17,687 nucleotides of DNA from a virus. The translations under genes were made by a program, and so were the position numbers. A model generated the notes under the pieces. It saw nothing but the letters and a program-made list of their open reading frames with translations, had not been told where the DNA came from and made no database searches. Below are positions 1 through 8,945 of this stretch, piece after piece (position 1 is the first letter of the stretch; each line of letters begins with the position of its first letter). The DNA lies in the UHGV virus genome UHGV-0085586; one strand, given 5' to 3'.

Positions 1-1083
1 ATGAAAAAATTAACAGTGGCAATTTCTGCTGTAGCTGCATCAGTACTGATGGCGATGTCTGCTCAGGCAGCTGAAATTTATAATAAAGACAGTAACAAGC
101 TGGATCTGTACGGGAAAGTTAATGCTAAGCACTATTTCTCCTCTAATGATGCAGATGATGGTGATACTACTTATGCCCGTCTTGGCTTCAAAGGTGAAAC
201 CCAAATCAACGATCAACTGACTGGTTTCGGTCAGTGGGAATATGAATTCAAAGGCAACCGCGCTGAATCTCAAGGTTCCTCCAAAGATAAAACCCGTCTT
301 GCCTTCGCTGGCCTGAAATTCGGTGACTACGGCTCAATCGATTACGGCCGTAACTACGGTGTAGCATACGACATCGGTGCGTGGACTGACGTTCTGCCAG
401 AATTCGGTGGCGATACCTGGACCCAAACAGATGTGTTCATGACTGGTCGCACCACTGGTGTTGCAACTTATCGTAACAACGACTTCTTTGGTCTGGTTGA
501 TGGTCTGAACTTTGCTGCTCAGTATCAGGGTAAAAATGACCGCACTGACGTAACTGAAGCTAATGGTGATGGTTTCGGTTTCTCCACTACTTATGAGTAT
601 GAAGGATTCGGTGTAGGTGCAACCTATGCTAAATCTGACCGCACTAATAATCAGGTTATCTACGGTAACAACAGCCTGAATGCATCTGGTCAAAATGCTG
701 AAGTATGGGCAGCTGGTCTGAAATATGATGCGAACAACATCTATCTGGCTACCACCTATTCTGAAACCCAGAACATGACTGTTTTTGGTAATAACCATAT
801 TGCCAACAAAGCACAAAACTTCGAAGTAGTTGCACAATATCAGTTCGACTTCGGTCTGCGTCCGTCCGTTGCTTACCTGCAATCTAAAGGAAAAGACTTG
901 GGTGCGTGGGGTGATCAGGACCTGGTTGAATATATTGATGTAGGTGCAACCTATTACTTCAACAAAAATATGTCCACTTTTGTTGATTACAAAATCAACC
1001 TGATTGATAAGAGCGATTTCACGAAAGCATCTGGCGTTGCTACCGATGATATCGTTGCTGTAGGTATGGTTTACCAGTTCTAA
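1..1083 (+). CDS. nmpC: General diffusion porin (OmpC/OmpF/PhoE family), prophage-encoded NmpC/Lc-type
   Basis: 360 aa ORF from ATG at 1 to TAA at 1081-1083. N-terminal signal peptide [23 protein letters not shown] followed by AEIYNKD; Gly/Tyr/Asp-rich beta-barrel composition; C-terminal aromatic residue (...VGMVYQF). Matches my recollection of NmpC/Lc porins, which sit next to Q in DLP12/PA-2-type prophages. Symbol is by recollection, not search. Confidence 0.85.
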
Positions 1084-1093
1084 TTTGATTACT

Positions 1094-1132
1094 AAAAGAT
1101 ATGTTGCGGGAGGCTTTGCCTCCCCAACATAT
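1094..1132 (-). terminator. Hairpin with U-tract on the minus strand (candidate tR'-like terminator or late-leader structure downstream of Q)
   Basis: Plus-strand arms atatgttgcgggaggc (1099-1114) and cctccccaacatat (1119-1132) around loop tttg. On the minus strand the stem is followed by CUUUUAGU (plus 1094-1098 aaaag). A second hairpin aagtggct/agccactt lies at 1133-1154. Confidence 0.35.
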
Positions 1133-1219
1133 AAGTGGCTCCCTCAAGCCACTTCCTTTAGGAGCACAACCTTGCTTCTAACTATATAAACCTTCTGTTA
1201 TATATTACCCTTTATTTTT

Positions 1220-1253
1220 GGGGGCGTTGCAACGCCCCATTTTTAATAATTTT
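1220..1253 (+). terminator. Rho-independent terminator downstream of the porin gene
   Basis: Perfect palindrome ggggcgttgcaacgcccc (1221-1238) followed directly by atttttaataatttt on the plus strand. Confidence 0.6.
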
Positions 1254-1271
1254 TAGTAAACAATTGGCATA

Positions 1272-1655
1272 TTAATTAGAGTTATTAACAACGATATCCA
1301 TCTCTAACCGGATATCTAATGCCATTAACATCCCTTCAATTATGCCCTCAGCCTTCTGTAACCTTTTCCCGATATAACCATCAGAGCAGCAATGCTTACC
1401 TGCCAGTGACATGAATGTCATACCGACTACATAATAATCTACTAATAAATCGTGCAAATCGCTGTTGTTCTTTTTCAGACGGGCCATGCACCCGCAAATA
1501 ATCATCGCGTCATCGTCACAACATTGCGGGCGAGATTTTACTTTTGAAGTAATTAATCCCTTAAAACCGGCGGCAATGGACGACCAGGTCACATCTTCAT
1601 GATTATTAGCCGCCCACGCTCCCCAGCGTTCGAGAACCATCTGAATATCACGCAT
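1272..1655 (-). CDS. quuD: Late-gene antitermination protein Q (DLP12 QuuD-like)
   Basis: 127 aa from ATG at 1655 ([24 protein letters not shown]...); the track ORF starts at an upstream TTG at 1670. Cys-rich motifs ([20 protein letters not shown]). Position at the end of the early-right operon, upstream of the late region, as in lambdoid phages. Symbol from memory. Confidence 0.8.
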
Positions 1656-1672: not shown

Positions 1673-2692
1673 TCAGGACAGCACACCAATCGCCAGCGCG
1701 CGATCGATAAAACGAAATATCAGCTCCAGTTGGGAACCATACTTCTCTTCAAATGCCACGGTATCCGCATGTAGTTCGTCATGGTGTTTTCTGCACAAAG
1801 GCAACACAAAAAGGTCATGCGCTTTTGTACCCATTCCACCCTGACCATGACCAATCAGGTGATGAGGATCGTCGGCTGGCTTACCACAACATGCACACGG
1901 CTGCGTCTTAACCCAGCGCGTGTACTTTTCATTAACCCAGCGACGACGTTTTGGGCGTAACATAAAAGACTCCGGCGACTCCGGATCCACTTTCAGCGCC
2001 AGCACCTTTTTCGCTTTATCCTGGATGATGCTGGTGGCAGGAACCGAAGGCACAAGGTCACTTTCCCGGGTGACAGACGGCACAACAGGCTTCGGTAATC
2101 TCAGTGCCTTACGGGCTGCACTTTCCGGTAAGGCATCCGCCAGGTCATTACGAATCAGCCACCAGCACAGTTCCGGCATTGTCACAACGTGACTGTCATC
2201 AAAACCGAGATCCCGACGCACAACAGACAACACCCAGCGGGCACAGTTATCCGTTGCCATTGATTCCAGCCGTTCCGTGAACTGATCGCGCAGCTGGTTA
2301 TCGCAGTGCCAGCACAGACGGATCGCGCCCGGCGCGTGTCGCATTGTGGTCATGTTCTCGCTGTGCCAGTCGGAATGAGGCCACTGACAGCCCTTTTCAC
2401 GAAGTAACCAGCTTTCAAGACATTCCACGCCACCAGCACGACGGATCACTGCCTCATTGCAGAACACGGCTCGAACGGCAGGATCATCCGCCAGCGGTTG
2501 TGATGCCGCGGGAACGGCACCACTGGCGAAAGATGAATAACGTTCCGGCTCAGGCTCCAGCAGGACACGCCCCTGCATAAACAGGGGCATCAGCTCTGAA
2601 CCGGGCCTGAACAATACAATCCCCATACGCGGGGCAATTTCAGGGGTCAGCAGTGCTCTCACGGTCACCTCAGCAAACGATATTGAATGCAT
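1673..2692 (-). CDS. Prophage protein with C-terminal Cys/His-rich HNH-like domain (DUF968-like)
   Basis: 339 aa, ATG at 2690-2692 (minus). C-terminal ~95 aa carry [14 protein letters not shown]...[10 protein letters not shown], a Zn-finger/HNH-like arrangement that I recall from DUF968 prophage proteins. Occupies the nin-region slot between replication genes and Q. Confidence 0.7.
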
Positions 2693-2713
2693 ACAGAGAA
2701 AAAAACTCAGTCA

Positions 2714-2971
2714 TCACGCAGTAAACTCCTTCACCAGTATTTCAAACTGGCTTACCTGTCCTTCCAGTTCCTCCACGCAATCCACCAGCTCATCCACCGC
2801 CTTTTGTGTACGGTGTTTTGCCTGCAGCAGATCACGAAGCGCCGGAGTAAGCTGCTTGCGGAGCGTATCTTTTGCCACGCTCGTTTTTTCCATCTGTTCA
2901 GCACAACGAAGCATCTCCTGCGCCTGCCGACGAAGTTGTTCCGGTGAAACAGTGGTTGTTCTGTTGTTCAA
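2714..2971 (-). CDS. Hypothetical small coiled-coil protein (85 aa)
   Basis: ORF opens with TTG at 2971 overlapping the helicase stop (tTGa); GGAG lies 8 nt upstream. Charged, helical composition. Start codon uncertain (internal ATGs exist). Confidence 0.45.
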   Translation of the reverse strand: MNNRTTTVSPEQLRRQAQEMLRCAEQMEKTSVAKDTLRKQLTPALRDLLQAKHRTQKAVDELVDCVEELEGQVSQFEILVKEFTA

Positions 2972-4368
2972 AATAAACGCTCCATTTTACTGCCCGACAT
3001 GCGGTTATTGCTGTATCTGCGCGGATTGCCCGGCGTCATGGGTGTGGAAAGAACCCGGGCACTCTCCTGGTCCACAGGCAGAAAATGTCCGTTATGAAAA
3101 CGCCGGTAAATGGTCCCGAGCGTGCCATTACGCTGTTTCGTGATGTTGATTTCTGCTATGCCTCTGGCCTGAGTTTCCGGGTTGTATACCTCATCCCTGT
3201 AAAGCATCAGAATGATGTCGGCATCCGCCTCGATTTCCCCGGAGTTTTTCAGGTCCGAGTTCATTGGGCGTTTATTGGGTCTGGATTCCACGCCGCGGGA
3301 GAGCTGGCTCAGAGCAATCAGCGGAAAACCGCCGGATTTTGCCAGGCTTTTAAGTCCCTTTGAGATTTCCCCCACCGCAAGGTCGTGACGCCCCGTGCTG
3401 CGGGTTTTAATCAGGCCGAGGTAATCGACCACCACCAGCGCCGTTTCCGGGTGTTTCATCCGGTGGTGCTTCGTGGTTGCACATATCTCATCAATGGTCA
3501 GGTTTGCCTGGTCCACCATCCAGATATTACGCCCCGTCATTCGTCCCACGCCCTGCGAGAAACGCGCCCAGTCTTCATCTTCAAAACGGGCAACAGACTT
3601 AAGACGGGATACCGGCATTCCACCGGCAGCAGACACCATACGTTCACCAATCTGGATGTTCGCCATCTCCATGGTGAACAGAAGCACGCCATGCCCCTGC
3701 TCAGTCACCTTGTCGATGATGTCCAGCGCAAGTTCGGTTTTCCCCATCGAAGGACGGGCGGCAATGAATACCAGGTCTCCGGGCTCCATACCGCCCGTTT
3801 TTGCGTCCAGTTCATCAATACCGGTCATCAGCGCCCTGGATTTCTCCAGTCCCTGATTGCGGCATTCAACACGGTCGACCACTTCCGGAAGGACATCATC
3901 AATGTGAACCGGCTGAATGACGCCCTTTCCGGTCGACAGTGAGGCCATCATGTTCTGCGCATCCTTCAGGGCATCCTCGGCTGCTTCACAGGTATACGCA
4001 TCACGTAAATTCTGTAATGCTTCAGTCAGTGTTTTTTCTGCATCGCGCAGTGCGGCATTGCGCCGTAACGCTGCGACATAGTGCTCCAGTGAAGACTTCA
4101 CCCAGGTTTTGCGTCCGGTGTCGGTAATCACCGGGGCAAGTTCCGGCATCTCATTGCACAGCAGTACGGGGTCAATGACGCCGGATATGCGAGCCTGTCT
4201 GCAAATCCCCGCGTAAATATCCCGGTACTGACGCACAAAAAATACATCCGCCGGAAGTGTGGTCAGAATATCCATCACTTCCGGATCGGCCCCACGCAGA
4301 AAAAACGCACCGATGACAGCGCCTTCCAGGTCATCGTTACGCCATGCCGGGGTGTTCTGGCTGGTCAT
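2968..4368 (-). CDS. DnaB-family replicative DNA helicase
   Basis: 466 aa; ATG at 4366-4368 (minus) preceded by GGAGGTG. RecA-like C-terminal domain with Walker A-like ARPSMGKTELALD and typical DnaB motifs (GIDELD...GGMEPGDLV..., LSQLSRGVESR). Confidence 0.9.
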   Translation of the reverse strand: MTSQNTPAWRNDDLEGAVIGAFFLRGADPEVMDILTTLPADVFFVRQYRDIYAGICRQARISGVIDPVLLCNEMPELAPVITDTGRKTWVKSSLEHYVAALRRNAALRDAEKTLTEALQNLRDAYTCEAAEDALKDAQNMMASLSTGKGVIQPVHIDDVLPEVVDRVECRNQGLEKSRALMTGIDELDAKTGGMEPGDLVFIAARPSMGKTELALDIIDKVTEQGHGVLLFTMEMANIQIGERMVSAAGGMPVSRLKSVARFEDEDWARFSQGVGRMTGRNIWMVDQANLTIDEICATTKHHRMKHPETALVVVDYLGLIKTRSTGRHDLAVGEISKGLKSLAKSGGFPLIALSQLSRGVESRPNKRPMNSDLKNSGEIEADADIILMLYRDEVYNPETQARGIAEINITKQRNGTLGTIYRRFHNGHFLPVDQESARVLSTPMTPGNPRRYSNNRMSGSKMERLF

Positions 4369-5264
4369 GCGGCAACACCTCCGATACGAGAACGGTAGCT
4401 GGGCCAGTTAAACGACAACCAGTTGCGCCCGCCATCGGTGATCCTGTCGGCAATCCGGGGACTGATGAACGCCCACAATTCTTCCGGTGAAAGGTTGCTG
4501 ATCAGGATAGTTGGCAAAATACCCTCATACCGGGCATTGATAATTTCCTGCAAAATGGCCATTTCAGCCGCACTGCCAAACTGAACGCCGACTTCGTCGA
4601 CAATCAGCAAATCCAGTGACGCATAATGCTCAATGACGTCATCCGCTGTTTTTTCACTGTCATTCCGCCAGCAGTTTTTCACAGCCCGGGTAAGGCGCAT
4701 CACGTCGGTGATCTCCACACTGGCCAGATAGTTACGGATGATGTGTTTTGCCATTGATACCGCCAGATGATTTTTCCCGGTACCGCAACTGCCGGTCATA
4801 ACAAGACTGGTACCGTTCTCCAGCATATCTGGCCAGTTCTCCGCATAGCGGCGACAGGCCGCAAGATTTCTGGCTGCGTCAGGATTAACCTCCAGATAAT
4901 TATCAAACTCGCAGTCCCGAAAACGCAGAGCAATTCCGGCGTTATCAGTCAGTTCTTCCGCCTTGAGGGACGACAGTTCCATGGTCAAATCACTGGCCTC
5001 AGCGATCAAGCAGTCAGGGCAGCATGAAATTTTTTCTCTGTCCTCGCCATTACGATCGATCCACACCAGTATATGCGTACGATATTTACCGTGTTTTTCG
5101 CAATATCCGCGACCTTCACGCATCAGGCAGGAACGATAAGGCCATGGCTTTTCGCCCTTCTGAGCAAATGCAATCTCTGCCCGTAACTCATCCATTTCTG
5201 CCCGTAACTCATCCATTCGCGCCTGTAGTCTTGTTTGTTTCTCACGTTGGTCAATCGTCATCAT
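4365..5264 (-). CDS. DnaC/IstB-like AAA+ helicase loader (P-like replication protein) with N-terminal coiled-coil/Cys motif region
   Basis: Walker A GSCGTGKNHLAVSMA and Walker B DLLIVDEVG. Start set at ATG 5262-5264, 6 nt after GAGGTG; the track ORF begins at GTG 5273. Stop overlaps the helicase start (ATGA). Confidence 0.85.
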   Translation of the reverse strand: MMTIDQREKQTRLQARMDELRAEMDELRAEIAFAQKGEKPWPYRSCLMREGRGYCEKHGKYRTHILVWIDRNGEDREKISCCPDCLIAEASDLTMELSSLKAEELTDNAGIALRFRDCEFDNYLEVNPDAARNLAACRRYAENWPDMLENGTSLVMTGSCGTGKNHLAVSMAKHIIRNYLASVEITDVMRLTRAVKNCWRNDSEKTADDVIEHYASLDLLIVDEVGVQFGSAAEMAILQEIINARYEGILPTILISNLSPEELWAFISPRIADRITDGGRNWLSFNWPSYRSRIGGVAA

Positions 5265-5274
5265 CGCTGTCACC

Positions 5275-6201
5275 TCAGAATGTCAATTTGTTACTGGATT
5301 TACCGAATTTGTCAGACATGGCTCCCAGGCCAGCCAGGACATCGACCTGTCGCTGTCGCCCACCTCCGTGAGCGGCTGGCTGTTGCCAGTAATCTTCGAA
5401 GTGACGATCGGGTCCAAAGAACGTCGCAGCCTGCTTCACGAACTGTGTGCCGGTATTTCCTGTAGCACGTACCCAGGCGGCATACCGCTTCACGCCATCA
5501 AGCATGGTCTCCGGTTTTATTCCCTCCCTGATACGGGCTTTCCAGGCTTTGAAGGCTGCTGACTTGGAATTGCCACCAGCACGTTTGGGATATTCCTGCC
5601 AGGCCTGTTCAAATTCCGGTGAATATTCCTGTCTGGCAGAACGCGCTGGTGCAGACGCGTCAGCGGATGCGCCAATATCTTGCGGTTCATGTTTTGAATT
5701 TACTGGTGGTTCATGTTTTAAACCTTGTGGATCTGGAGTCAGATTCTGAAGGGTCAAACGCGTATTTTTGCCAGAATCTGAAGGGTCAAACACGCCTGAA
5801 CATACAGATTCTGACGGTTCAGATTTTGAAGGTTCAGAATCTGAAGGGTCACGTAATACTGAAAGTCTGCGCTGCTGTTTCAGTTCTGCAACCTTATCCC
5901 GCTCAGTTCTGGCAAGCTGCTCAAGCCGATCAGCATTCAGATGATAAAGATTGGACGTATTACGGTTACCTTTGCGGCGTGACTGACGCGTCAGCCAGCC
6001 ATCAGCCTCCAGTTCGGAGATTGCCGTTCTGACTGTACTTTCTCCCAATCCAAGCTGTCGACATATGGTTTCAACACCCGGGTAGCACACCCCGTCATCA
6101 TTCGAATAATCAGCCAGGCGCGCCATAATCATCAGTTTTGCACCTTTGACGCCATATGCTGCGCATGCATCCCAGACATTACCGAGGATCTTGCTACTCA
6201 T
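5275..6201 (-). CDS. Replication initiator (lambda O-like) with N-terminal winged-helix domain
   Basis: 308 aa; ATG at 6199-6201 (minus) preceded by GGGAGGTG. N-terminal HTH (...GVCYPGVETICRQLGLGESTVRTAISELEADGWL...). Central repetitive DPSDSEPSKSEPSES segment coincides with the DNA iterons, as for lambda O/ori. Confidence 0.8.
   Translation of the reverse strand: MSSKILGNVWDACAAYGVKGAKLMIMARLADYSNDDGVCYPGVETICRQLGLGESTVRTAISELEADGWLTRQSRRKGNRNTSNLYHLNADRLEQLARTERDKVAELKQQRRLSVLRDPSDSEPSKSEPSESVCSGVFDPSDSGKNTRLTLQNLTPDPQGLKHEPPVNSKHEPQDIGASADASAPARSARQEYSPEFEQAWQEYPKRAGGNSKSAAFKAWKARIREGIKPETMLDGVKRYAAWVRATGNTGTQFVKQAATFFGPDRHFEDYWQQPAAHGGGRQRQVDVLAGLGAMSDKFGKSSNKLTF
5684..5853. repeat. Candidate phage replication origin: five iterons plus a flanking duplicated AT-rich motif, inside the initiator gene
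   Basis: Iterons AGAWTYTGAMGGKTC at 5741-5760, 5774-5795, 5806-5820, 5821-5837 and 5836-5850; duplicated ggttcatgtttt at 5684-5695 and 5708-5719. Confidence 0.6.
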
Positions 6202-6422: not shown

Positions 6423-6613
6423 GGACGCACCTCCGCCGTAGTTACGTATTTAACCGGGCTACCTTTCATTGAGATGGTTTCACACATCTCTGCCGCTTTC
6501 AGTTCCGCTGTTTTTCTGGATTTATAGCGACGGTGCCAGACAGATACATCCGTGCGAACTGATACATCGTTTCTGTATTCCGTAGTGGAGATGATGATTT
6601 CGTAACTAATCAT
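6419..6613 (-). CDS. Hypothetical small protein (64 aa)
   Basis: ATG at 6611-6613 (minus) preceded by AGGAGG at 7 nt; ATGA overlaps with both neighbours. Confidence 0.55.
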   Translation of the reverse strand: MISYEIIISTTEYRNDVSVRTDVSVWHRRYKSRKTAELKAAEMCETISMKGSPVKYVTTAEVRP

Positions 6614-7173
6614 GGGCGAACCTCCTTGTCAGAACCATTCAGCCTGGAATCAACAAGTGCAGCGCCAAAAACAGCATCACCAACACGGTCGTACAGTTTG
6701 CTAGCCAGCGGAGATTCAACGGCCTTAAGCATTGGATAAAGCTGGCTTGTCCAGATTTGATGGATTTCACGCAAATGCAGGTATACGCCTCTGGCGTTTC
6801 GTGCGACAGCTGACATATCAGACGCATCGGCACCTGATAAACTCTTCTCCATCAGGTTAAAGGCGTTGATGTATGCCTCTTTGAACCGGGCAGCACGTTT
6901 ACCCGTGAAACCCATAGCAAGAAATGCAAAACCGTCTCGTGTGATTTGATAGCAAGGGAGCTTGCGTGTACCACCGTTCGGTTGATTTACCGAAATCGAT
7001 GTCTCCGCAAAATTGCGGGCACAAAACTCAGGGGAACAATCCAGAGTGCGGATCTTTTTCAGCACATCGTCGTGACGCTTGGAGAAGAAGTTGGCAACAG
7101 CCAAAGAAGTGGTAACGGCCTGGCCGTTGTCAATGGTGATTTCAGGTTGAGTGAGGGCTGGGATCGTAGCCAT
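6610..7173 (-). CDS. Rha-family phage regulatory protein (antirepressor-like), copy 3
   Basis: 187 aa from internal ATG at 7171-7173, 8 nt after GGAGG. Rha-type signature begins here (NGQAVTTSLAVANFFSKRHDDVLKKIR...YQITRDGFAFLAMGFTGKRAARFKEAYINAFNLME). The track ORF extends to 7470 through the leader; see findings. Confidence 0.75.
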   Translation of the reverse strand: MATIPALTQPEITIDNGQAVTTSLAVANFFSKRHDDVLKKIRTLDCSPEFCARNFAETSISVNQPNGGTRKLPCYQITRDGFAFLAMGFTGKRAARFKEAYINAFNLMEKSLSGADASDMSAVARNARGVYLHLREIHQIWTSQLYPMLKAVESPLASKLYDRVGDAVFGAALVDSRLNGSDKEVRP

Positions 7174-7470
7174 GATGGCAGCCTCCGTTGACAGTGAAAA
7201 ACTTCCACCACCGGAAACGCCAATTCCACTGGTGGTGAACTGGACGGGGTTGGCGTAACCGGCGTCAACGGAGACCGGCGCACCTTTCGGTGCCCCCGCC
7301 CAGCCCACCATAATCTGGATGTGAGCAAATGCGGACGATAAAAAAGACGCTGGCGCGTCATACATCGCCGTTGACAATTTCAGGACGCCAATCCCGGCAC
7401 CCGCTTTATAAGGTGCCTGAGCAGTGTAACGTCCCGAAATTGCAGAATCAATATGCTGGTGGCGGATCAT
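7174..7470 (-). promoter_or_regulatory. Structured leader copy A (c4-like tripartite RNA element: promoter-like site, terminator hairpin, GNRA hairpin, anti-SD, SD)
   Basis: Minus-strand TTGATT-17-TACACT (plus 7446-7451 / 7423-7428); hairpin gacgcGCCAgcgtc + U6 (plus 7340-7359); GAAA-loop hairpin (7280-7293); GUCAACGG at 7368-7377 and at the SD (7183-7192); complementary CCGUUGAC at 7262-7271. Confidence 0.6.
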
Positions 7471-7829
7471 AGGTGCACCTCCCGTTGATTACGACGGAAC
7501 GCGGAGTGACCCTGGACGGTTTCAGCCTCATGGAATGCTTCAATACAGCTCTCGTAGTACCGCATTGTGCGCAGACTTAACCCAAGCTGAAGCATCATCA
7601 GACCATCAAGGGTGATGTAATAACCACGCAGGGAGTCACCGTAGATGTGATAAGTACCCGGTATGAAATTGCGGGTAAAAAACTCGCGTGAGCAGTTCAG
7701 ATACTCGATTTTGTCAACGATGTTCTGGTGCATGCGCTTGAAATGGCAGGCAACATGCAGGGAGAAAATAACGGCCTTGCCGTTGACGACTTCGATTTTT
7801 AGGAATGGGGAAGTTAGGACAGTAGCCAT
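7467..7829 (-). CDS. Rha-family phage regulatory protein (short, antirepressor-like), copy 2
   Basis: 120 aa from internal ATG at 7827-7829 preceded by the same ACGGAGGCTGCCATC-ATG context as copy 3. Rha-like block (...GKAVIFSLHVACHFKRMHQNIVDKI...YYITLDGLMMLQLG...). Stop overlaps the leader-A ATG at 7470. Confidence 0.7.
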   Translation of the reverse strand: MATVLTSPFLKIEVVNGKAVIFSLHVACHFKRMHQNIVDKIEYLNCSREFFTRNFIPGTYHIYGDSLRGYYITLDGLMMLQLGLSLRTMRYYESCIEAFHEAETVQGHSAFRRNQREVHL

Positions 7830-8129
7830 GATGGCAGCCTCCGTATGCAATGGATAACTTCCACCACCGGAGCTGCGAAACTCATGGGTGGTGAACTGAA
7901 CAGGGTTCGCAGTACCGGCGCATACGGAAACCGGCGAGCCTTTCGGCTCCCCTGCCCAGCCCACCATAATTCTGGCGTGCGTGAGCGCGGACGATAAAAA
8001 AGACGCTGGCGCGTCATATATCGCCGTATGCAATTCCGGGCTGCGACCCCCGGCACCCGCTTTATAAGGTGCAGAGACAGTGTAACGTCCCGAAATTGCA
8101 GAATCAATATTTGGTCTTGAAATGATCAT
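7830..8129 (-). promoter_or_regulatory. Structured leader copy B (paralogous to copy A, altered pairing specificity)
   Basis: Same architecture: promoter-like TTGATT-17-TACACT (plus 8102-8107 / 8079-8084), terminator hairpin + U6 (7996-8015), GAAA hairpin (7936-7949). The three elements read GCAUACGG (8024-8031 and 7841-7848) versus CCGUAUGC (7920-7927). Confidence 0.6.
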
Positions 8130-8213
8130 ATAGCTGCTGATATCTTTAGAACTGTTCTTGGATGTTTCGGAGCCGTTTTATGCGAAACAGCTCCCCGTTA
8201 TTGATGTTGAGTG

Positions 8214-8238
8214 AGCCGGGTTACTCCCGGCTTTTTTT
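8214..8238 (+). terminator. Plus-strand-oriented intrinsic terminator-like hairpin between antirepressor genes (orphan)
   Basis: Stem agccggg (8214-8220) / cccggct (8226-8232), loop ttact, followed by T7 on the plus strand (8232-8238). On the minus strand an A-run precedes it, so it is not a minus-strand terminator. A second hairpin lies at 8168-8195. Confidence 0.4.
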
Positions 8239-8945
8239 CACCGCTGCCAACCAATAACCTGAAATAACCCCATTTTCGGGTGATACCAGCGAGTCCCTCG
8301 CGGTTCTGCTTCCTCCATAACCCGATAAAAAGCAGCCATAAACGGTTCCACAGCAACAATTGCGCGACGTGACAACAATCCGTCCGGCGTCATGAACTCA
8401 TGTGTATCTGTAGGAATTTGATAGGCGTTCACCAGATTGCGGCATTTATCATCTGACAAACCGGTTTTTGCTTTCAGTTGGCGATATCCGGCATAGCCCT
8501 CACGAATAGTGCCCTTTTTAATTTGCTCGACTGTTTCAGCAACGTGGCTGACTTTTTCTTCCACCTGAGTGATCCGTTTCTGTTGGCGAACGGCTTCAAG
8601 AGCCATCGCGGCAACCATTTCGATTTCGCTCATTGGCTTACGGATCTGTTCTTCCAGTTCGCGCCAGCGATCTACCAGGCGAGCTGTGAATTCAGGACAG
8701 AGCTGTGCGACGACAATGATGCTGTCGCGCTTACCTTGTTCACCTTCGAATACATACGCGCTAGAAAATCGGCGAGGCCCAAGTGATTGTTTATTCTCAA
8801 TTTCCACAGTCTGTGGAAATTGGATGATTCCCTTTTTAGCCAGTGTTTCAATAGTTCTCTTAACACTATCTGGTCGGCTTCCCACCAGCTCTGCGATCTC
8901 AACGCTGGTCATGGATGCTTTGCCGTTAAAAATTGCGGTGTTCAT
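8238..8945 (-). CDS. Phage regulatory protein, Rha/antirepressor family with C-terminal extension, copy 1
   Basis: 235 aa; ATG at 8943-8945 (minus), 7 nt after AGGAGA. N-terminal MTSVEIAELVGSRPDSVKRTIETL... and ...VVAQLCPEFTARLVDRWRELEEQ resemble phage antirepressor DNA-binding domains. Confidence 0.75.
   Translation of the reverse strand: MNTAIFNGKASMTSVEIAELVGSRPDSVKRTIETLAKKGIIQFPQTVEIENKQSLGPRRFSSAYVFEGEQGKRDSIIVVAQLCPEFTARLVDRWRELEEQIRKPMSEIEMVAAMALEAVRQQKRITQVEEKVSHVAETVEQIKKGTIREGYAGYRQLKAKTGLSDDKCRNLVNAYQIPTDTHEFMTPDGLLSRRAIVAVEPFMAAFYRVMEEAEPRGTRWYHPKMGLFQVIGWQR

Follow-up and report, generated by a model that had tools for sequence, protein, structure and literature searches.

The window considered here is a stretch of 17,687 nucleotides from the virus genome UHGV-0085586, at the start of which lie a complete porin gene on the plus strand (1-1083), a spacer of 188 bp (1084-1271) and a convergent gene for the antiterminator Q on the minus strand (1272-1655). 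The original prediction had described a complete prophage porin of the OmpC family, opposite in strand to the adjoining Q and parted from it by a structured intergenic region of 190 bp, and all of this stands apart from the exact length of the spacer. All three elements are shared, with 100% identity, by an E. coli chromosome in RefSeq (NZ_OZ547136) and by the plaque-forming phage PhiR34_1; in both of these loci holin and lysozyme genes follow on the minus strand beyond the porin start and thus outside the window, where a check for lysis genes had been proposed. A spacer of this type was found in 2,502 of 5,426 complete E. coli genomes (coverage of at least 80%), with identities of 91-100% across these approximately 2,500 genomes. 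The early region of the window's prophage carries DUF968, DnaB/DnaC-type replication genes and the Rha/Ash regulators, and the closest whole-window relatives diverge from it starting inside Q.

The porin gene encodes a protein of 360 aa which covers the whole Porin_1 profile in a Pfam search (PF00267, 1-337 of 337, E = 3e-153) and matches the solved structures of OmpC, OmpK36 and OmpF in the PDB with E-values of 1e-120 to 1e-137 (best 2e-137). It has the hallmarks of such proteins, namely a signal peptide (MKK...AQA|; codons 1-23, nt 1-69), the PEFGG motif of loop 3 and a C-terminal Phe (...VYQF), and from these matches it is assigned to the general bacterial porins, in the group of OmpC, OmpF, PhoE, NmpC and Lc. 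The alignment to NmpC and Lc that had been proposed gave 90.1% amino acid identity both to Lc of phage PA-2 and to a reconstructed NmpC of DLP12, the differences being clustered in a few blocks (residues ~181-190, 219-232 and 262-266). Since NZ_OZ547136 (WP_000737275.1) and PhiR34_1 (as 'OmpD') have the very same protein sequence among their annotations, the gene is judged to be intact and not a pseudogene, which had been named as one way in which the prediction could fail. Given this degree of identity, the convergent Q, and the holin and lysozyme genes beyond the porin in the identical loci, the locus is the already known NmpC/Lc-type porin cassette of lambda-like E. coli prophages. Lc and NmpC are classic lysogenic-conversion porins, and a similar phenotype would be carried over to the present porin from these homologues. 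Expression of Lc together with repression of OmpC via the IpeX tail is the lysogenic-conversion phenotype described in reviews and, reportedly, by Castillo-Keller et al. (2006); a search of the literature on PA-2 lysogen phenotypes yielded nothing useful.

Q is a protein of 127 aa when read from its ATG, or of 132 aa from an upstream TTG, and it is 100% identical to QuuD of K-12. It matches the full PF06530 profile (1-118 of 118, E = 4e-53) and the Q21 structures 6jnx and 6p18 (E = 7e-7), which places it in the Q21/Q933W family as named in bioRxiv 10.1101/651190. The Q of the Stx phage H-19B is 80% identical to it over residues 1-120, and the Q proteins of the window, H-19B and Lambda_4B5 can be aligned through ...RLEMD (residue 120), after which they diverge completely. 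The seven-codon tail past this mosaic junction (IVVNNSN; 1275-1295, minus strand) marks the right-hand edge of the cassette; at the DNA level homology begins at 1296 in the comparison with Lambda_4B5 and at 1323 in that with the Q genes of Stx phages.

The spacer is far more structured than expected by chance, with a plus-strand fold of -61.8 kcal/mol and z-scores against shuffled sequences of -8.3 (plus) and -6.4 (minus), none of 200 shuffles being as good. Three hairpins had been reported, here called A, B and C, and all are present; however, there are five in all, D and E having gone unlisted. Hairpin A (1099-1132) can form on both strands, with 15 bp and a 1-nt bulge (-22.7/-23.3 kcal/mol, z of approximately -6.5). 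On the plus strand it forms the first stem of the RNA discussed below, whilst on the minus strand CUUUUAG (1098-1092) comes after it and gives it the orientation of a minus-strand terminator, as had been noticed. Just four U's trail it on that strand and the terminator scan did not call it, probably because of the bulge. This terminator-like element would fit a tR' and a terminator of the Q transcript equally well; we infer that it probably ends the Q/early transcript just ahead of the porin stop codon. In the 4A7 and PhiR63_2 copies a C-to-G change shifts the bulge, with the 15 pairs kept. A published study of IS5 in K-12 lends indirect support to hairpin A as a minus-strand terminator: an rrnB terminator inserted between nmpC and quuD was without effect, and in its authors' view transcripts coming from quuD do not continue into nmpC.

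The remaining hairpins are assigned to the plus strand. Hairpin B (1133-1154) has 8 bp and a 6-nt loop, and 4A7, PhiR63_2 and 19AR1321 do not keep its top two pairs; scanning genome contigs for its palindrome, AAGTGGCTNNNNNNAGCCACTT, returned only chance palindromes from unrelated phyla, the pattern being too unspecific. Hairpin D (1158-1181) has 9 bp including a G.U pair and is stronger on the plus strand (-9.7 kcal/mol, z = -3.9) than on the minus (-5.9 kcal/mol, z = -1.4); two variants seen in nature keep the plus-strand pairing as U.G or G.U wobbles, where the minus strand would have A.C mismatches. Hairpin E (1183-1204) is weak, with seven A-U pairs, one of which is broken by one variant. 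Hairpin C (1221-1238) is the sequence GGGGCGTTGCAACGCCCC, which had been described as a perfect 18-bp palindrome; it is indeed a perfect palindrome of 18 nt, but in practice the hairpin has a stem of 7 bp and a loop of 4 nt. ATTTTTAATAATTTTT comes after it on the plus strand alone, the one strand on which the terminator scan matched it, and therefore it is a plus-strand terminator, whereas the minus-strand sequence after it, CAAAAAUAAA, offers no terminator tail. Together with its U-tract (1221-1254) it is the Rho-independent terminator of the porin transcript. The 7-bp stem is invariant and the loop varies (TGCA, CTCA, TTCC, TTCA or TGAC); as the window has TGCA in this place and K-12 has CTCA, the perfect palindrome is specific to the window's allele. 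A covariation test on eight distinct spacer alleles found no double changes, and the hairpins thus go without covariation support because the spacer copies are more than 91% identical, too similar to bear on structure.

Known phages offer a ready identity for this region. According to reviews, IpeX is a 167-nt 3'UTR RNA of DLP12 and PA-2 that is made within the nmpC/lc porin transcript and represses OmpC and OmpF, and an Lc phenotype with OmpC repression through the IpeX tail has been reported. In the window, a feature of ~167 nt with five hairpins (1084-1250, plus strand; 3' end approximate, 1244-1254) begins directly after the porin stop codon, runs on the porin strand and, counted as 167 nt from 1084, reaches the U-tract of the Rho-independent terminator. 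Downstream of the stop codon the identity is 96.8% both to copies of the K-12 type and to PA-2 (J02580), which makes this sequence homologous to ipeX of DLP12 and PA-2. On this evidence the spacer is an IpeX-homologous porin 3'UTR which ends in the plus-strand intrinsic terminator, hairpin C, and its hairpins are for the most part those of IpeX and not of a phage late promoter. Repression of OmpC and OmpF by this homologue would be a function carried over from DLP12 and PA-2. An Rfam scan of positions 1-2000 (E up to 1) gave one chance snoRNA match, there being no IpeX family in Rfam, and RefSeq has no feature for IpeX at the locus. The RNA is thus missed by standard annotation and the spacer is easily misassigned.

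The original prediction had taken the spacer for a pR'/qut/tR'-like region from which Q-dependent late transcription would run antisense through the porin. A consensus scan of the spacer found no sigma-70 promoter on its minus strand, and a relaxed search gave at best 8 of 12 matches, with spacers of 15-19 nt and poor spacing. For comparison, PR' has been mapped by dRNA-seq and Term-seq in the Stx phages of strain Sakai that carry the window's type of Q, where it starts 258 nt upstream of the 3' end of tR' (PMC7547250). In Sp5 this start was placed at AAGAG, 7 nt past a TATCAT -10 box, with the -35 box TTTACG within the last Q codons; with this +1, the published GU|AUU site of RNase E lands at +173, as reported. 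A second candidate in H-19B, TTGCAC N17 TAAATA inside StxS, was rejected, as both the 258-nt distance and the +173 site fit the Q-proximal TATCAT promoter.

A homologue of this PR' (-35 TTTACG, +1 AAGAGTGGTTAC) lies approximately 400 nt upstream of the porin ATG and is directed away from the porin. The window itself ends at the porin ATG, and the motif and its block are missing from it when searched at up to two mismatches; the far-side PR' was seen in identical and related loci, namely in L001 and PhiR34_1 (100% identical), K-12 DLP12, PA-2 and 434B. The block as a whole (TTTACG, CGTAAAAA, TAAGAGTGGTTAC and a first hairpin) is found upstream of the porin in L001, L002, L003, L127 and L128, and the junction from porin upstream sequence to PR' is carried by 2,415 genomes. 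In the literature, the Q(DLP12)-dependent promoter essDp has its +1 ~49 nt beyond the nmpC ATG, past the porin start, and the regulatory fragment of the DLP12 lysis operon extends from within nmpC codons 19-25 to essD. Although essDp (~49 nt beyond the ATG) and the Stx-type PR' homologue (~400 nt) are different sites, the late promoter is most likely located on the other side of the porin from Q. As the PR' homologue lies beyond the porin and points away, with the cassette between it and Q, Q-dependent transcription should not cross the porin. A pR'/qut/tR' reading of 1084-1271 is thus not supported, and neither is the late antisense transcription built upon it.

The closest parallel is DLP12 (qsr') of K-12, which has the same order and orientation of Q, a spacer of 188-189 bp, a convergent porin and lysis genes, an identical Q, a spacer sequence of ~97% identity (quuD-nmpC) with all of the hairpins, and a PR'-like block upstream of the porin. 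It differs in that K-12 nmpC is interrupted by IS5 whilst the window's porin gene is intact, in the few internal blocks by which the porins differ, in the terminator loop, and in its early region, the window's prophage having another one. Phage PA-2 (J02580) is similar in its lc gene and the sequence after it (spacer likewise ~97% identical), has the PR' +1 motif ~400 nt upstream of the porin ATG and has lysis genes beyond; however, it carries another porin allele, and its record ends inside Q. The Stx phages (Sp5 and Sp15 of Sakai, H-19B and 933W) share the window's Q family, and the window's identical twin locus has a promoter block homologous to their PR'-StxS-tR' region, with a StxS-like leader and a tR', whereas the window itself is without any such leader. 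Moreover, PR' overlaps the last Q codons in the Stx phages, but here a porin cassette of ~1.9 kb intervenes between Q and PR'. The likeness to the pR'/qut/6S RNA/tR' region of lambda is more general, a Q antiterminator acting on a constitutive promoter with a terminator nearby (bioRxiv 10.1101/651190); the Q of lambda belongs to PF03589 and that of the window to PF06530, in this locus the promoter stands apart from Q, and what folds beside Q is DNA of the convergent gene.

We therefore consider it probable that the locus is a porin cassette like that of DLP12 and PA-2, set in reverse between Q and its late promoter, with an IpeX 3'UTR and with late transcription running away from the porin. 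The cassette would comprise the porin gene with its IpeX 3'UTR and terminator, driven by a promoter that lies outside the window, and it appears to have replaced ~60 nt, from Q codon 120 to the -35 box of PR', such that Q would have gained its new 7-residue tail. In the lysogen, the porin promoter would yield the porin mRNA, and its IpeX tail would, by homology, lower OmpC and OmpF, thereby remodelling the cell surface; minus-strand read-through of Q would be halted at hairpin A, ahead of the porin. Upon induction, Q would act in trans at PR' beyond the porin and late transcription would be directed away from the porin to the lysis genes.

The case for a late promoter in the spacer runs as follows. 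In lambdoid phages pR' normally lies directly after Q (bioRxiv 10.1101/651190), and Lambda_4B5, which has a related Q, shows promoter-like and tR'-like elements immediately behind that gene and an antisense moron gene after these, so that a promoter directly downstream of Q is possible in principle. With hairpin A as tR', given its minus-strand orientation, and with minus-strand lysis genes beyond the porin, Q-modified RNA polymerase would then read antisense through the porin to reach them. We regard this as very unlikely in view of the poor promoter matches on that strand, the palindrome of hairpin C being a plus-strand terminator, the mapped PR' +1 motif lying beyond the porin in all examined relatives, and a published Q(DLP12)-responsive promoter fragment located between nmpC and essD. 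It is also unlikely, if less so, that the hairpins act mainly on the minus strand, as a terminator or insulator of the early (pR-Q) operon that shields the porin, with any role of a plus-strand RNA being secondary or absent. The minus strand does fold beyond chance, hairpin A has its U-tail there, and in K-12 transcripts coming from quuD are believed to stop short of nmpC; however, B, D, E and C are without a minus-strand terminator tail, D is weak on that strand, and the homologous RNA is reported in reviews to be functional. In addition, the terminator hairpin C stands 140 nt past the porin stop, which makes sense only if a long 3'UTR is transcribed.

That the porin is a relic of a prophage, silent or in decay, next to a structured spacer without current function, seems the most improbable reading. 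It would accord with the splitting of the K-12 orthologue nmpC by IS5 and with the persistence of the porin in decayed, Q-less prophage remnants in some genomes, but the intact ORF shared with a plaque-forming phage, the conservation of the spacer across ~2,500 genomes, and a terminator stem that is invariant whilst its loop is free to vary all argue against it. A rather doubtful addition to the cassette reading concerns the convergent transcripts themselves. If each were to run on to the more distant terminator, hairpin C for the plus-strand RNA and hairpin A for that of the minus strand, their 3' ends would overlap by ~150 nt (1099-1250) and be perfectly complementary, and the Q mRNA that rises upon induction might, by pairing, neutralise IpeX or the porin mRNA or bring about their cleavage. 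Such pairing would tie the lytic switch to a reversal of the porin and OmpC remodelling. No less doubtful is a separate idea, that insertion in front of PR', on its Q side, offers accessory ('moron') genes a general route of entry on which late transcription would not cross them.

As found, the locus matters little in itself, the same DNA being present in K-12 DLP12, in PA-2 and in nearly half of the complete genomes of E. coli, and the porin and the IpeX RNA having been in the literature since 1985-2006. The lesson is a more general one: structured DNA beside Q should not be presumed to be pR'/qut/tR', as in the present case such DNA is the 3'UTR of an accessory gene convergent with Q and a whole cassette separates the late promoter from Q. 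By comparison with its relatives, the layout would insulate the porin, each strand having its own terminator, and would lead late transcription away from it, though this suggests no new kind of system. The layout may nonetheless interest specialists in phage mosaicism, as the cassette is placed precisely where Q breaks off from its relatives, at the junction behind codon 120.

The window opens with the ATG of a porin gene (1-1083, plus strand; 360 codons), whose product matched the Pfam profile for general porins over its whole length (E 3e-153) and the solved structures of OmpC, OmpK36, OmpF and PhoE with E values of 1e-117 to 1e-137. It shares 90.1% identity with Lc, and likewise with the reconstructed NmpC, the mismatches being grouped in a few internal blocks, and the protein is 100% identical in E. 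coli NZ_OZ547136 and the plaque-forming phage PhiR34_1. On sequence grounds, this close homology to Lc and NmpC bears out the lysogenic-conversion role originally predicted for the gene. Convergent with it lies the Q antiterminator gene (1272-1655, minus strand; 127 codons), a full-profile match to PF06530, the Q21/Q933W family of late antiterminators, and a weak match to the solved Q21 protein (E 7e-7). In DLP12, a cryptic prophage of K-12, the Q protein (QuuD) is 100% identical, as it is in NZ_OZ547136 and PhiR34_1, and residues 1-120 of the window's Q share 80% identity with Q of the Stx phage H-19B.

The remaining sequence, the early half of a lambdoid prophage, encodes DnaB and DnaC-like replication proteins, a DUF968 protein, three Rha/Ash regulators, cro-like and cI-like proteins, an excisionase and an integrase. 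The Rha-domain genes are consecutive (6610-7470, 7467-8129 and 8238-8945, minus strand), the first two also carrying an Ash domain, and the trio (6610-8945) has the cro-like gene on one side and the replication genes on the other. The DUF968 gene (1673-2692, minus strand; a weak HNH-like match) is directly upstream of Q, whereas DLP12 and PhiR34_1 carry rusA/ylcG/ninE genes at this position. The closest whole-window E. coli relatives (e.g., NZ_CM128593, 98.4%) match only rightward from 1510 or 1612; the same early region is thus linked there to other Q/late modules, with breakpoints inside Q.

All three hairpins predicted in the 188 bp spacer between porin and Q (1084-1271) were found: hairpin A (1099-1132; 15 bp, one bulge, about -23 kcal/mol), hairpin B (1133-1154; 8 bp) and hairpin C (1221-1238), a perfect 18-nt palindrome, GGGGCGTTGCAACGCCCC; folding added hairpins D (1158-1181) and E (1183-1204). 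On either strand the spacer folds much more stably than its dinucleotide shuffles (z = -8.3 plus, -6.4 minus). Downstream of hairpin C the plus strand reads ATTTTTAATAATTTTT and the minus strand CAAAAAUAAAGGG, which makes hairpin C a plus-strand terminator; hairpin A has a CUUUUAG tail, but just on the minus strand. Hairpin D, which includes a G.U pair, is stable on the plus strand only (-9.7 versus -5.9 kcal/mol; z = -3.9 versus -1.4), the sole one-sided changes within it being wobble pairs on the plus strand. The eight distinct spacer alleles compared are too alike for a covariation test. In all of them the hairpin C stem (7 bp) is invariant whilst its four loop bases vary freely (TGCA, CTCA, TTCC, TTCA, TGAC), and thus the pattern of variation is that expected of an RNA terminator hairpin rather than a palindromic protein-binding site; the perfect palindrome is peculiar to the window's allele.

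The locus is already known, as its exact sequences occur in annotated public records and the porin/IpeX element was described decades ago in K-12 and PA-2. The spacer DNA is 100% identical in NZ_OZ547136 and PhiR34_1, and ~97% identical both in K-12, where it lies between quuD and nmpC, and 3' of lc in the phage PA-2 record J02580 (1986). It was found at >= 80% coverage in 2,502 of 5,426 complete E. coli genomes. Castillo-Keller, Vuong and Misra (J Bacteriol 2006) reportedly located ipeX in the stretch that runs from the nmpC stop codon to the Rho-independent terminator of nmpC. According to reviews, IpeX is a 167-nt RNA of DLP12 and PA-2, made from the porin promoter within the porin transcript and then processed, which represses OmpC and OmpF and requires Hfq for some targets. 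Counted from the base after the porin stop, 167 nt ends at 1250, within the U-tract 3' of hairpin C. The spacer looks unassigned because an Rfam search returned no family for IpeX RNA and the K-12 RefSeq feature table lists no RNA gene in the nmpC-quuD region.

The original prediction judged the spacer consistent with a pR'/qut/tR'-like region and had Q-dependent late transcription run antisense through the porin. A consensus scan of the spacer minus strand found no sigma-70-like promoter, and a relaxed scan gave only 8-of-12 matches with poor spacers. In Sakai Stx phages with this Q type, dRNA-seq located the late promoter PR' and Term-seq its terminator tR', at a distance of 258 nt, and +173 was given as the position of an RNase E site, GU|AUU (PMC7547250). 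When these distances are placed on the Sp5 sequence, +1 falls in AAGAG, with a TATCAT -10 box 7 nt before it and the -35 box TTTACG inside the last Q codons, and GUAUU is exactly at +173; H-19B has the same layout. The homologous block (TTTACG, CGTAAAAA, a TATGCT -10 box, TAAGAGTGGTTAC and the first GC-rich hairpin with its U-run) lies ~400 nt upstream of the porin ATG in NZ_OZ547136.1 (the window's identical twin), PhiR34_1, K-12 DLP12, PA-2 and 434B, in all five on the Q strand and heading for the holin gene, with the porin behind it. The 12-nt PR' +1 motif was not found anywhere in the window with two mismatches allowed, and the junction between porin-upstream sequence and PR' occurs in 2,415 genomes, close to the count with the spacer. 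As the spacer lacks the Q-strand promoter that is a hallmark of such a region, and the homologous mapped promoter lies beyond the porin and points away from it, neither the pR'/qut/tR' reading of the spacer nor antisense transcription of the porin finds support.

Independent of this mapping, the DLP12 lysis operon has been reported to depend on a Q-type antiterminator and RpoE. The regulatory fragment used for it (-121 to +650) starts in nmpC codons 19-25 and ends in essD, which puts the essDp +1 of that study past the nmpC ATG, at a distance of about 49 nt. At the K-12 locus this +1 (about 4340-4375) adjoins a GAACT...TCACT RpoE-like pair, and the Stx-type PR' homologue (about 4690-4740) lies about 350 nt past it. 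The DLP12 lysis genes thus have two distinct candidate late promoters, both across the porin from Q and outside the window. The PR' -35/spacer region also holds a 10-nt perfect palindrome (712-721 in the Sakai Sp5 locus; about 5627-5618, minus strand, in the twin locus), which is TACGATCGTA in Sakai and H-19B and TACGTACGTA in the twin, DLP12 and PhiR34_1; the central AT-to-TA change preserves the palindrome, which may be a protein-binding site. Past the porin, to the left of the window's counterpart, the twin locus (2200-5640) has a Stx-phage-like PR'-StxS-like leader with tR', a methyltransferase fragment, tRNA-Ile/Arg/Arg, a SASA-family (nanS-p-like) esterase, holin and lysozyme. It has no stx genes and is a toxin-less Stx-phage late region, which likely makes an StxS-like small RNA.

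As far as ...RLEMD (residue 120) the window's Q can be aligned with those of H-19B and Lambda_4B5, after which the three have unrelated tails of 7, 24 and 5 residues, respectively; homology to H-19B resumes across the porin, about 12 nt ahead of the stop codon of H-19B Q. The simplest reading of these alignments is that some 60 nt separating Q codon 120 from the PR' -35 box gave way to a cassette of about 1.9 kb (porin promoter, porin, IpeX and terminator), in which case cassette DNA (1275-1295) would have supplied the new short tail of Q. In the present layout porin transcription would head toward Q and stop at hairpin C, whilst transcripts from Q toward the porin would pass hairpins C, E, D and B, all without a minus-strand tail, before reaching hairpin A and its CUUUUAG, where they would end 8-15 nt before the porin stop codon. 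The convergent 3' ends of the porin/IpeX and Q transcripts would thus overlap by roughly 150 nt. We infer these termination steps, and also that Q protein would then act in trans at PR' past the porin. In K-12, an rrnB terminator put between nmpC and quuD caused no change, from which its authors concluded that quuD-side transcription does not cross; this lends indirect support to a Q transcript ending short of the porin.

A different layout is found in Lambda_4B5 (LR595863.1, 1802-2560), where a TATCAT box, a TAGAAT box and a tR'-like hairpin come immediately after a related, QuuD-like Q and an antisense lipocalin (Blc) gene lies beyond them. The mosaic junction that this accessory gene occupies, after Q codon 120, is also that of the window's porin. 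As promoter-like and tR'-like elements thus lie between Q and the lipocalin gene, and the Stx-type PR' +1 motif is absent from the remaining 5.6 kb to the lysis genes, late transcription in Lambda_4B5 may well cross the antisense gene, and the antisense model proposed for the window was therefore not absurd. The porin cassette also occurs apart from Q: in E. coli 19AR1321 (NZ_CM127582.1, 1516-2812) an intact porin with an IpeX-like 3'UTR lies beside yedK, with ybcM, ybcL and emrE near, in a decayed prophage without Q or lysis genes that has retained the cassette.
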